Of a DNA stretch of 64,000 bases, positions 2,179 through 44,245 are shown piece after piece (within the stretch, counting starts at the first letter, position 1; every line of letters begins with the position of its first letter). The position numbers and the translations under genes were made by a program. Under the pieces are notes generated by a model. That model saw only the letters and a program-made list of their open reading frames with translations. It made no database searches and had not been told where the DNA came from. The stretch is taken from assembly GCA_951406725.2 (NCBI GenBank), contig OX597816.1:35464001-35528000 (forward strand). Reading direction: 5' to 3'. The DNA comes from Octopus vulgaris. Taxonomy: Eukaryota.

Positions 2179-2789
2179 TATATATATATATATATATATA
2201 TATATATAAATATATATATATATCTTCAAGTTTTTATCTATCTGTATTATCATCTATATTAAAATTGATGAAAGAGAAGTGGCATAGTAATTTCTGTTTA
2301 TTCTTAACTTTCCTTCAAACGTTTATGTCACATTTACTTAATTTCGACATTTATTAAGGAACCCAACTGTTGAAATATTAAAGAAATAAAATTATGAAAA
2401 GTTGAAATTCATATATTTGCACCTTCGCATTTCCACATATTCATATGTTTTTGAAAACATTAAAGTGCTAATATTCATAAATGTTACAATCATATATATC
2501 ACTCAAAATTAAATATATACATTTACACCATGCACGCTCGGTACCGAAGTCCTTGAACGGTTATGGAAATCAATTTTTGTATTGACATCTTTATACACGC
2601 TCTTACCAATTGAGAATATAGTTTGTATCTCATTATTTTGATACATTCACACTCACACAAACGTCTGCACACACACACATACATACATAATACATACATA
2701 CATACATACATACATATATATATATATATATATATATATATATATATATATATATATATATATATATATATATATATATATCCACATAT

Positions 2790-2975
2790 ATATTTAACGG
2801 GGAGAGCTTACGGAAAAAAACAAAAGACGAAGACAGGTAGTGTACAAAACAAACAGATGTATTAGTATAAATAGAAAAAGTCTTTTACGTTTCGAGTCTA
2901 CGCTCTTCTACAGAAAGGGACACAGAAAAAAAAACAGAGAAAAATGTGTGTAGTGGCTAACGTTCTATCATGGTG
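2790..2975 (-). mobile_element. Short PLE pseudo-LTR-like fragment with a hammerhead-like core
   Basis: Abuts (TA)n and contains the motif at 2882-2917. A related decayed copy lies at about 32570-32700. Confidence 0.55.
2882..2917 (-). ncRNA. Minimal type I hammerhead-like motif with a variant core
   Basis: Reverse complement reads CTTT-CTGTAGAA-GAG CGTAGA CTC-GAAAC GTA-AAAG. Stem I CTTT/AAAG, stem II GAG/CTC, loopless palindromic stem III (ACGT). The core is CUGUAGAA rather than CUGANGA. Confidence 0.5.
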
Positions 2976-4289
2976 ACTGTTATATAGTCGCCATGGAGAT
3001 GTTATATATATATATAACATCCGATTTTTTATCACCATTCTGCGTTGCTCCAGTCCACTGAGATACTAAAAATGAATACGCTTGCACTACACGGGGTTCC
3101 GACAAGGGAGAAATATATATATATATATATATATATATATATATACGTCACAGAATCTGGGAATTCTGTCTAATAAGCCTATTTCTCTGGAGGGAACTTT
3201 GATGCTTTCTTTCGTTTCATGCGAGTATGTTTATATGCATATTTTGATATATGCCTCAATGGGTATGCCATTAGTTTCGCGGGCAAATGATCTGAGACTT
3301 TTTAGAAAGATGACACTTTCTATAGTTGTTGCACATCAACAGCTACGTCGTGAGTATAATTCGACAGATGGAAACCCATCAGGTGTATTGTGTGCGTGTA
3401 CTTCTAGGATATCACACCTATTGGAAAATCGTTCAGAGCAAAGATACAATAAGCTGAGTGTTCCGTCATCAGAAAGAGATAGATAGAGATATCTTACTCA
3501 TAATGTATCTCTATAGGTTACATATAACGCAGGTATATACTAAATCTGCTAAATCTCATTTGACTTTCTGTTTAACATCAGTAAAGCAAAATCCTGTACC
3601 ACAAGTTTTAGCTCAATTCCAGCAGGCAGTAAACAACTAATGGTTACAAATAAAGCATCTTCTCTTGTATCCTATACATGTCTTAGTAATCACAAAATGA
3701 AACTTTTGGGATTCTACAAACGTATACCCTTCCGTCATAACTCGCAACATTTCATTTAACGACAGTTTCCACTAACTACTAGGGGTTGAATTACACATGT
3801 ATCAGATTATGTAATTAAAAAAATCATTTAAATCTATTGCAGCTGAGATGTTTGGCATTGCTGTTCTTCACAGAGAAAGGACGGTATGATCATGGCTGAA
3901 ACGCTATTAATTATAGCTTTCCTTTTAAATTAGTCCTGACTTGACTTATACGAGAACCATAATTACAGCCATCGCACTATTTACTATTGTAAACACTACT
4001 TACTATTTTCACGATTATTGAGGTAGACGAGAGTAAATTCAGTCTAGCATGTATGAACATGCCAAACAAAATTGCCCGTGTCGTTCATGGCTTGTATGTG
4101 TTAAATTAAAAGTAAGTATTGTGGCCCGAAAAATATAGAGAAGGTTGACTGTCTGCTTCATATATGCCTCTTAATTGTCATCAGATACTGTCAAAGTAAG
4201 TACGAAGTTTGGAAAACTGCCGGATAAAACAGCCCAGATATTCGCATTGGTTCTAATATTAAAATGTACTATTACACCATGGATCCAAC

Positions 4290-41549: not shown

Positions 41550-41985
41550 GGCGTAGGAGTGGCTGTGTGGTAAGTAGCTTACTTACCAACCACATGTTTC
41601 CGGGTTCAGTCCCACTGCATGGCAACTTGGGCAAGTGTCTTCTACTATAGCCTCCAGTCAACCAAAGCCTTGTGAGTGGATTTAGTAGACGGAAACTGAA
41701 AGAAGCCCGTCGTGTATATATATATATATATATATATATATATATATATGTGTGTGTGTGTGTGTTTGTGTATGTGTGTGTATATGTTTGTATTTCTGTG
41801 TTTGTCCCCCAACATCGCTTGACAACCGATGCTGGTGTGTTTAAGTCCCCGTAACTTGGCGGTTCGGCAAAATAGACCGATAGAACAAGAACTAGGCTTA
41901 CAAAGAATAAGACCTGGGGTCGATTTGCTCGACTAAAGACGGTGCTCCAGCATGGCCACAGTCACATGACTGAAACAAATAAAAG
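41550..41985 (+). mobile_element. SINE family B, full-length
   Basis: Head, CTTGGGCAAGTG core, internal (TA)n(TG)n, tail TGACTGAAACAAATAAAAG. Confidence 0.9.
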
Positions 41986-44245
41986 GTAAGTAAAAGTTGC
42001 TAGGTATTCCGGCTGGTTTTCCAAGCCTGAGAGTCTGAAACTTTCAATGCTATAAAAATAAACCGTTCTTCGTCTCTCCTAGGTTTCCTGGCTCGGCTTC
42101 AAGTATCTGTCTTGTGATTTCATTCCTGTGATATTCTAATCACATGTTCGTAGTACTGTAGCTGTGAAATCCAATTGCAGATAAGTAACGGCTCTAACTT
42201 CAGAAGCTGTGCACACTGTTGCGGAGGAACAACATTTCCGCTGTTTGTATTCGCGGTCGTACTAATTTAGTCATTATCCAGTGTTCGTGACCAGAGGAGA
42301 GCATAGGCACACAAAACAATTTCAAGATTGCGGATCGCTTTTCATCTGGTTGCAACGTAAGTTCTGTCCGTTTTTTTAATTAAATATCTAGTTCGTTCTG
42401 AAGATCTTTAACACCTACAGTCTATACGAAATCAGGAACCAAGTGTCTAAACCCCCTACGATAACATCGAGTATTGTCAATGAAGATATTCCATGGTTAT
42501 ACCAATCACGAAACTCTACTTTTTATACAACTGAGAATTTGCTGATATAGTAATCACCGCCTATATCATAGAATTGAGGATTAGAGTTCTTGTCTAACTA
42601 TCGTCATGAAAAGAGAGTTATCCAATACATTGTGAGTTGCTAGCCCGTTGTAGCCCGGATTTACAAAATATCGCGACAGAAAAATTCCAAACTTTCCAAA
42701 ATAATTAAATATAGGGTTTGATTTGTTCGACTATAACGCTTCAAGTTAATGCCCCAGCACGACTGCATTTCAGTGATTGAAACAAGTAAAATATAAAGCC
42801 ATAAAAAAGGTGATTTTGCTCAATAAACACAATATTGTTACACACGCTCTCCGATGCACATTCATCTTACAGTAGAAATACACAAGAAACATACACACAT
42901 TCTAACGTCTGTGTTTGTTAAGAACGAGAGGGAGAAAGACAGAGTGACTAAGTGAAGGAGAGATATAGAGAGAGTGTGAGAGAAATAGTAAGAGATATTT
43001 GTAGGTATTATACGATTATAATATATATATATATATATATATATATATATATATATATATATATATATACATATATAAGTGCATAGGATGTCACCATAGG
43101 TACAAATAACATGAAATATGTAACCCACGTAGTTAAAAACTTAAACAGTGGTTTCATCCTGTACCCATATATGCATTTATAAATGAGTCTTGAATCCTAT
43201 CTTATATTGCATTAGTTGCTGTCGTTGACATGTTAAGGCAAGGCACATATCAGAATTGAAAATCCTGGAAATGTTGTTTGCAGGTATATTGTATCACAAA
43301 TCAGGGGACTGGAAAATTTGGGGCCATTAATTTATTTACCATTACAATATTTCCTCTTCTTTACTGTTTAATTTGTTCTCTCTAACTAACTATACTACCC
43401 GCCGAATACTATCTATGTAAAAAAGACTGATCCAGGAGTAAAATTTGTATTATTCGATAGCCTCTCTGAAGAATTTCAGATAGGAATTCAGTTTATTTTT
43501 GATTTATACACATAATAAATAAATAAATAAATATATATATATATATATATATATATATATATATATATATATATATATATAAAATGTAGCTGGCATACGA
43601 GTGGGTATATATTCATAAAAAACGAAGTTTGAAAATACGACTATATCAGATACATTTTAATTTTCTTACTGATCTTACATGTTTCGGTTCTTCTTGAAAA
43701 AACGGACCTTATCAAAAATATTTTAAAAAGTTAAGTGTAATAAAAAAATTCATAATTGTTTCTTACAAGTCTCAACAGAGTCCACGTCGTTGTGTTTTGT
43801 GGGGAGAACATAATAGCTCTCTTGTGCGTTGACTAGAATCACTGGTTGTAATTGTGAAAATCCCTTGTATATATTTATATATATATATATATATATATAT
43901 ATATATATATATATATATATATATATATAAAAGATATGATTAAGATTCAGGCACTTAAATTGAAAGACCAAGACAGTCCGGTGTTTTATTCACAGCTCGA
44001 AGTAAGGTGAATATAAACAAATTGAGCAACTGGATATCAATTAGTAACGGGGTACAAACTTTTCAACCAGTTCCATTTAATTGAACAATGCAATCACTAC
44101 ATCAATTTAAATGAAATGCTATCTTCGGCTGCACAAGTAAATAAATGCAGACAGCACTATAATCAAATTGATATAATAATTGCATTATTCAGTAAAATGG
44201 AAGCGAATGAAAAGGTTTTACTGCATTAGCACTTGATATTATTTT

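Follow-up and report, generated by a model that had tools for sequence, protein, structure and literature searches.

The stretch analysed here (hereafter the window) comprises 64,000 nucleotides of the Octopus vulgaris genome (contig OX597816.1, positions 35,464,001 to 35,528,000) and carries nine repeat families, A to I, each bearing a type I hammerhead ribozyme motif. Seven of these families are best read as the tails of coding Penelope-like elements (PLEs), while the two others, F and G, are non-coding tandem units that are likely copied by the same enzymes as retrozymes. We give this reading a probability of roughly 85%.

A preliminary description of the window, made from its letters alone, had listed about ten hammerhead sites, intact or decayed, and hammerhead-type sequence is indeed present at all of them. 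A strict canonical type I descriptor returns a single match in the window (core 28905, minus strand), for a mean of 0.125 over 40 shuffles. The relaxed descriptor, i.e. the strict one widened to the variants found in the family consensuses, returns nine motifs (cores 2913-, 4921-, 4930+, 7021-, 8708-, 27158+, 28905-, 29543- and 43715-) versus one match in total for 30 block-wise dinucleotide shuffles of the window; this count is partly circular because the descriptor was tuned on these same families. On a 400-kb genome sample the relaxed descriptor finds three motifs, against one match in 10 shuffles. These three are independent of the tuning, two being relatives whose stems have changed in a compensatory way. 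With nine motifs in 64 kb versus three in the 400-kb sample the window is unusually rich, the sample coming from contigs C1 to C4 only (the window lies on C3), so that genome-wide density is loosely bounded. Four of the listed copies, at 9192, about 26017, 28006 and 31238, fail the relaxed descriptor; each is a decayed copy from a family with an intact consensus.

The assembly (2.8 Gb, 227 contigs) was searched with each module as query, and 30 loci were taken per family among 40 scored (15 for family C). The listed sites sort into the nine families, each with a complete type I hammerhead consensus. An intact core together with a 3-bp stem I is retained among relatives in 24/29 copies for A, 18/22 for B, 14/14 for C, 24/29 for D, 18/28 for E, 27/29 for F, 27/28 for G, 22/27 for H and 15/29 for I. 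The consensus core is CUGAUGA in F and G, CUGA(A/U)GA in B and D, CUGACGA in E, CCGAAGA in C (U4C) and CUGUAGA in A (A6U); H and I have the U3-A8 variant. In family A the A6U change is fixed in 28 of the 29 copies (core CUGUNGA), position 7 varying among subfamilies. The stem II regions measure 12-23 nt, save those of D (55 nt) and E (97 nt), and stem III is palindromic in all families save B and G (4-5 pairs). The families with a palindromic stem III (A, C, D, E, F, H and I) are predicted from structure to self-cleave as dimers, and B and G possibly as monomers.

Could AT-rich microsatellite DNA hold such motifs by chance, or as dead sequence? One motif alone passes the strict descriptor, folding energies are unremarkable, and Rfam (E<=1) gives no hammerhead among 119 matches in the window, the listed ones being hairpin or microsatellite look-alikes. 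Against this, nine unrelated consensuses each retain the core and all three stems, stem III being either palindromic or long. Moreover related families exchange stem I pairs in a compensatory manner (CTTT/AAAG versus GTTT/AAAC), and nine matches stand against one in 30 shuffles. Chance is therefore refuted at the sequence level, and we hold it for extremely improbable.

Since longer copies link them to PLE open reading frames (ORFs), families A, C, H and I (Neptune-type) and B, D and E (Hydra-type) are read as 5'-truncated 3' ends of coding PLEs. The clearest case is family C, present in the window as a 5'-truncated copy (6850-8294, minus strand) with a GIY-YIG frame at 8294-7524 and a hammerhead with the U4C core at 7026-6982. 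A tandem locus of this family has a unit of 4271 bp in which an intact ORF1 is overlapped by a frame of 775 aa encoding a reverse transcriptase (RT) and a GIY-YIG domain. The hammerhead occurs once per unit and the two 3' ends lie 33 nt apart. All 149 scored matches are at 100% identity, without stops. By its sequence, family C is thus a young autonomous PLE. RT and C-terminal GIY-YIG share one frame, with Pfam GIY-YIG above cut-off, and the protein shows, as read by eye, a CX4CxxC linker (fitting CX2-5CxxC) and the DKG and GxKF motifs; the element forms a partial tandem with a hammerhead-bearing pseudo-long terminal repeat (pseudo-LTR) and a tail. These motifs place it among PLEs with a C-terminal endonuclease (EN+) of the Neptune/Nematis type, the two clades being taken together. 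In the same unit (L256-L257) an (AT)7 run stands right behind the second 3' end site and a short ATATAT behind the first; by pairing with a (TA)n target once it is nicked, such runs could serve as the start of copying.

The links of H, I and A to coding sequence are of several kinds. The left end of the window (1-2178, minus strand) matches by tblastn an element that we call J, with an ORF1-like stretch and the N-terminal half of a Neptune-type RT interrupted by stops and frameshifts. J runs on to the left of the window through the RT and a GIY-YIG endonuclease (EN; Pfam E=1.1e-05) into a 2-kb CA-rich untranslated region (UTR). This UTR is common to the H copy of the window, and 2 kb beyond the J EN comes a hammerhead end of H type, at 80% identity. 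At 2145-2178 (plus strand) a short inverted copy of the H/J 3' end lies beside (TA)n and would be the second arm of J; we gave up another reading, an antisense H end encoded within J ORF1, for this putative short inverted arm. Family H itself is a two-armed insertion with the CA-rich UTR (29467-31357), with a U3-A8 hammerhead at 29549-29503 (minus strand) and a decayed one at 31238 (plus strand). Family I is a Neptune-type 3' end at 43582-43860 (minus strand; hammerhead 43719-43672, U3-A8 core), with an in-sense GIY-YIG upstream in 4/30 loci. The family A 3' end occupies 2800-2986 (minus strand), its minimal hammerhead with the A6U core lying at 2917-2882. One A subfamily (77.5% identity) comes after the C-terminus of an EN, which has 86% identity with the terminal part of an RT-EN copy; Pfam gives nothing for the 68-aa piece linked to this family. 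A further decayed copy of A, absent from the preliminary list, lies at 32605-32682 (minus strand). In the 400-kb sample ten family pieces were recognised (A 6, F 2, C 1 and G 1), the six matches suggesting that family A is very abundant.

The Hydra-type links of B, D and E were missed by an ORF test made with the family C proteins alone and were revealed by walking upstream. In the window B is a fold-back (4790-4991) with hammerheads at 4927-4877 (minus) and 4924-4974 (plus), and D is a two-armed insertion (8423-9336) with one hammerhead at 8714-8629 (minus) and the decayed one at 9192 (plus). Family E is present as a decayed copy (25812-26036, minus strand, core 26017) and as a copy at 27442-28502 (plus strand) with a fold-back at 27442-27794 and the decayed hammerhead at 28006, whose motif with its long stem II spans 27998-28135. 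In all six long loci of D the sequence upstream is shared over 2.2-3.1 kb and contains a Hydra-type RT-EN frame; Pfam gives nothing for this protein, and ESM Atlas sets it near RT/GIY-YIG clusters at 0.93-0.97. An in-sense Hydra-type EN lies about 3 kb upstream of B in three of five long loci (L342, L343 and L344), and two of the seven long loci of E have an EN (L347) or an RT piece (L351). The three families are without CCHH and show CxxC and CxH around the conserved E and N (read by eye). The CxCX5C linker reads CNCPDKTTC in B and CNCRISSNC in E and is absent in D, where an Asn/Ser-rich stretch takes its place. DKT in place of DKG is seen in D only, the remaining copies (B and E) being 5'-truncated. 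By the lack of CCHH, the CxxC and CxH motifs, the hammerhead near the 3' end and insertion in (TA)n, B, D and E are taken as Hydra-type. In family B (L342-L346), a young Hydra-type PLE, the 3' UTR reaches 2.9 kb and is mostly TA/TG microsatellite.

Tandem and inverted insertions are known from Craig et al. 2021 (PMC8557442), as is a (TA)n preference in almost all Hydra families; their supplement includes Hydra-1_Obim of Octopus bimaculoides, for which both a hammerhead and insertion in (TA)n are given. A PLE of an octopus that combines these two features is thus already in print. Families B, D and E resemble these Hydra-clade PLEs by their C-terminal EN without CCHH and with CxxC and CxH, by the CxCX5C linker (B and E) or DKT (D), and by the type I hammerhead near the 3' end, the (TA)n insertion and the inverted 5' copies. 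They nevertheless are other families than Hydra-1_Obim. B also differs by its microsatellite-rich UTR of 2.9 kb, the published elements being generally <3 kb overall, D by the lack of the CxCX5C linker, and D and E by a stem II longer than in the Hydra rows of File S2 of that study. For the Neptune-type families the likeness (PMC4209133, PMC8557442) extends to RT with GIY-YIG and the CX4CxxC linker, to partial tandems bearing pseudo-LTRs, to motif pairs on opposite strands at a distance of 100-700 bp and to a tail at a single end. It also includes the solo-remnant minimal hammerheads and the U3-A8 variant, both reported by Cervera and de la Pena 2014 (PMC4209133), who found minimal hammerheads mostly as solo remnants, with opposite-strand pairs. 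The A6U of family A was not found in the sections of these two Neptune-type descriptions drawn on, and Lunse et al. 2017 may cover it or the long stem II; the portion of PMC3088659 used here reports a natural A6C hammerhead of low activity, and no A6U.

F and G are of another kind. F is a 351-bp unit (GC 0.41) arranged head-to-tail with a short inverted arm at 26910-27410 (plus strand; hammerhead 27152-27193), and G a 459-bp head-to-tail unit (GC 0.33) at 28609-29431 (minus strand), of which about 1.5 units precede an inverted arm (29311-29431), with the canonical hammerhead at 28911-28865. The longest ATG frame is 43 codons in F and 67 in G. The two units, folded as circles, reach z values of -5.0 to -7.3, versus +2.2 to -2.9 for five ends of coding families. 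G and F thus fit non-LTR retrozymes: consecutive units with type I hammerheads, non-coding, small, with GC <45% and self-paired. Such metazoan retrozymes have been described with a proposed PLE helper by Cervera and de la Pena 2020 (PMC7229834) and in a 2026 preprint (bioRxiv 10.64898/2026.07.22.740005), and lie, as here, alongside PLEs. The G unit exceeds the 170-400 nt given in PMC7229834 and falls within the 51-972 bp of the preprint. Where the published non-LTR retrozymes make long satellites, F and G occur as short, scattered arrays whose two-armed ends are PLE-style; they have no detectable similarity to a coding PLE end, and their cleavage and circular RNAs are putative. The preprint (Li, Clavereau and Pollet 2026) covers 35 genomes, none from a mollusc according to the portion of its text drawn on, and only one of nine predicted dimers cleaved. 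In the literature searched, of which parts were drawn on, no report of cephalopod retrozymes was found.

All nine families could be debris of coding PLEs, the tandems of F and G arising by local duplication of a terminal repeat. In favour of this, seven of the nine families proved to be ORF-linked once longer copies were read, some only past a UTR of 2.5-3 kb, and the copies read were top-scoring only. The arrays of F and G themselves argue otherwise: the same head-to-tail junction recurs at independent loci (19/29 for F, 23/28 for G), and hammerheads stand at exact unit spacing, two cores 457-459 nt apart in 5/28 loci of G and three cores 351 nt apart in one F locus (L281). In addition the whole unit is strongly self-paired, and among the best 30 loci of each family neither an in-sense PLE protein joined to an array nor a common 5' flank is seen. 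We consider it unlikely that all nine families are debris, with local duplication accounting for F and G. Three apparent links were rejected: the in-sense Hydra-type EN that precedes one G array (L173) proved to be a neighbour in its own right, with unrelated sequence and a TA tract in between, and the EN matches beside F in L139 and L165 are downstream of the array. The preliminary description had proposed a retrozyme-like system of non-coding modules of 150-800 bp, and had named as refuting case that every module be the truncated 3' end of an autonomous PLE. Its description suits F and G; the seven other families are coding PLE ends, as in the refuting case, and most of their modules extend in other copies into kilobase UTRs and ORFs.

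F and G share with the coding families a characteristic architecture. In every family the 3' ends are fixed beside (TA)n (less strictly in F) and the 5' ends vary. The builds of tandem unit plus fold-back noted in the preliminary description are present in the sequence; often an insertion consists of two outward-pointing arms that halt at two different fixed sites, an asymmetry found in 73 of 104 two-armed loci (hand count, window loci included). Behind the predicted cut the arms stop at +92/+23 in B (21/27 loci), +217/+66 in D (10/16), +381/+212 in E (7/14), +229/+173 in F (11/15), +259/+142 in G (16/18), +88/~+50 in H (3/5) and +100/+69 in I (5/9). These two-site arms match the PLE tail that the Fig. 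2 legend of PMC8557442 gives for a single end, and the work of Frangieh et al. 2024 (PMC11167929) on a lizard PLE, Poseidon_Ac, which in vitro has two internal priming sites and extension on both strands. The likeness to Poseidon_Ac lies in the two fixed 3' end sites, the AT-rich targets and the both-strand extension; our families differ by a site spacing of 31-169 nt, by (TA)n as target and by being read from sequence. By analogy with the lizard enzyme (PMC11167929), the GIY-YIG/RT protein would nick AT-rich DNA on both strands and reverse transcription would begin at two internal sites of the PLE RNA, one for each arm; most copies would stop early, leaving only the hammerhead-bearing end. 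The two-site signature of F and G is the best evidence that PLE enzymes move them, and we consider it likely that these are the enzymes that move the coding elements. Copies of F and G cross the predicted cut site as well as the junction between units, and the template expected from this is a circle or an uncut multimer.

We counted as adjoining (TA)n the copies with a (TA)5+ tract starting <=~30 nt beyond the outer end of the family, window loci and duplicates being left out. This is the case for 201 of 243 copies: A 23/29, B 28/29, C 13/14, D 29/29, E 20/29, F 11/29, G 27/28, H 24/27 and I 26/29. These counts rest on top-scoring copies and hence favour shared ends. A tract lies within 150-400 nt of random positions in 9.5-20% of cases. 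All motifs of the window found with the relaxed descriptor have a (TA)5+ tract 23-264 nt downstream, as do the three intact motifs of the unbiased 400-kb sample (3/3, at 51-154 nt). The adjacency to (TA)n asserted in the preliminary description is thus borne out.

That description further supposed that a GIY-YIG PLE targeting (TA)n mobilises many independent families here, each insertion splitting and multiplying TA tracts, which could help to account for the microsatellite load. Taken in full, this means a set of separate non-coding ribozyme elements carried by a single PLE, with enough new TA tracts to explain that load. Insertions of F, E, G and H are indeed stacked between TA tracts at 26910-31490, and an A-type element is nested inside a TA tract of a family B UTR. 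The B UTR carries 12-25 (TA)5+ tracts per arm (7 arms measured), and the family has young copies 99% identical at an internal anchor, so that B spreads targets directly. (TA)5+ tracts make up 3.5% of the window versus 2.4% of the 400-kb sample. On the other hand, only 30 of the 430 TA tracts of the sample adjoin a recognised module, a figure that unrecognised or decayed families would raise, and seven of the nine families are ends of coding elements from two clades. A GIY-YIG PLE as the source stands, in the form of several lineages of two clades and not of a single PLE; the stacking and the B UTR speak for a feed-forward, and overall the data point weakly to insertions as cause of the microsatellite load. 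As a whole, this one-PLE explanation seems to us improbable.

Several points weigh against seven coding tails and two enzyme-copied tandem units. Folded on their own, the nine motifs have energies in the range of shuffled sequence (z -1.4 to +1.1), and the minimum-energy fold of several of them differs from the active fold. No 5'-end pile-up is found at the predicted cut site in any of the seven families examined, and there is thus no genomic sign of cleavage; for the lizard PLE, cleavage was dispensable in vitro (PMC11167929). The ORF links of A and H run through diverged subfamilies, and none of the 29 closest A copies extends to an ORF, so that the short and abundant form of A may by now depend on other elements to move. 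F adjoins (TA)5+ in just 11 of 29 copies. Finally, the ORF check of F and G covers the best 30 of 1907-2995 first-look candidates, and neither family resembles in sequence the ends of the seven coding ones.

A stronger claim would be that F and G are active cephalopod retrozymes with the exact two-site, two-armed signature of PLE reverse transcription, which would prove directly from the genome that circular ribozyme RNAs are copied in trans by PLE enzymes, and that together with a young Hydra-type element whose TA/TG UTR sows targets they form a self-feeding TA-tract ecosystem tolerating an A6U core and a 97-nt stem II. We regard this as a tentative proposal, rather doubtful in its full extent. 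What is described here is mostly annotation of known biology in a new genome, i.e. known PLE debris, plus two new retrozyme-like families. The part drawn on of an earlier study counts 31 recently active Penelope-like families in an octopus, its main text being without mention of ribozymes (PMC13282606). Useful handles are the intact and very young PLE (C), the candidate retrozymes F and G, whose mapped putative priming sites bear on the proposed partnership between PLEs and retrozymes, hammerheads with natural variation (A6U, long stem II), and B, a retroelement that brings along its own target repeats.

Two observations fall outside the nine families. Two copies of a motif resembling a hammerhead, but with its parts rearranged and the CUGA/UGA core divided, are present at 18190-18290 (plus strand) and 15370-15460 (minus strand); the order is UGA and stem II, GUC and stem I, stem II and GAAAC, stem I and CUGA. 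Among 2340 first-look candidates this order is identical in 20/20 loci, with a perfect 5-bp stem III in 11/20 and TA <=100 nt downstream in 1/20. The copies sit behind what we take to be the end of a HERO-like ORF, and this split-core motif is possibly the more novel object in the window. Two other abundant interspersed repeats, presumably octopus short interspersed elements, occupy 13905-14142, 21073-21491, 26070-26456, 36764-36991, 41548-41996, 51644-52066 and 61579-61994.

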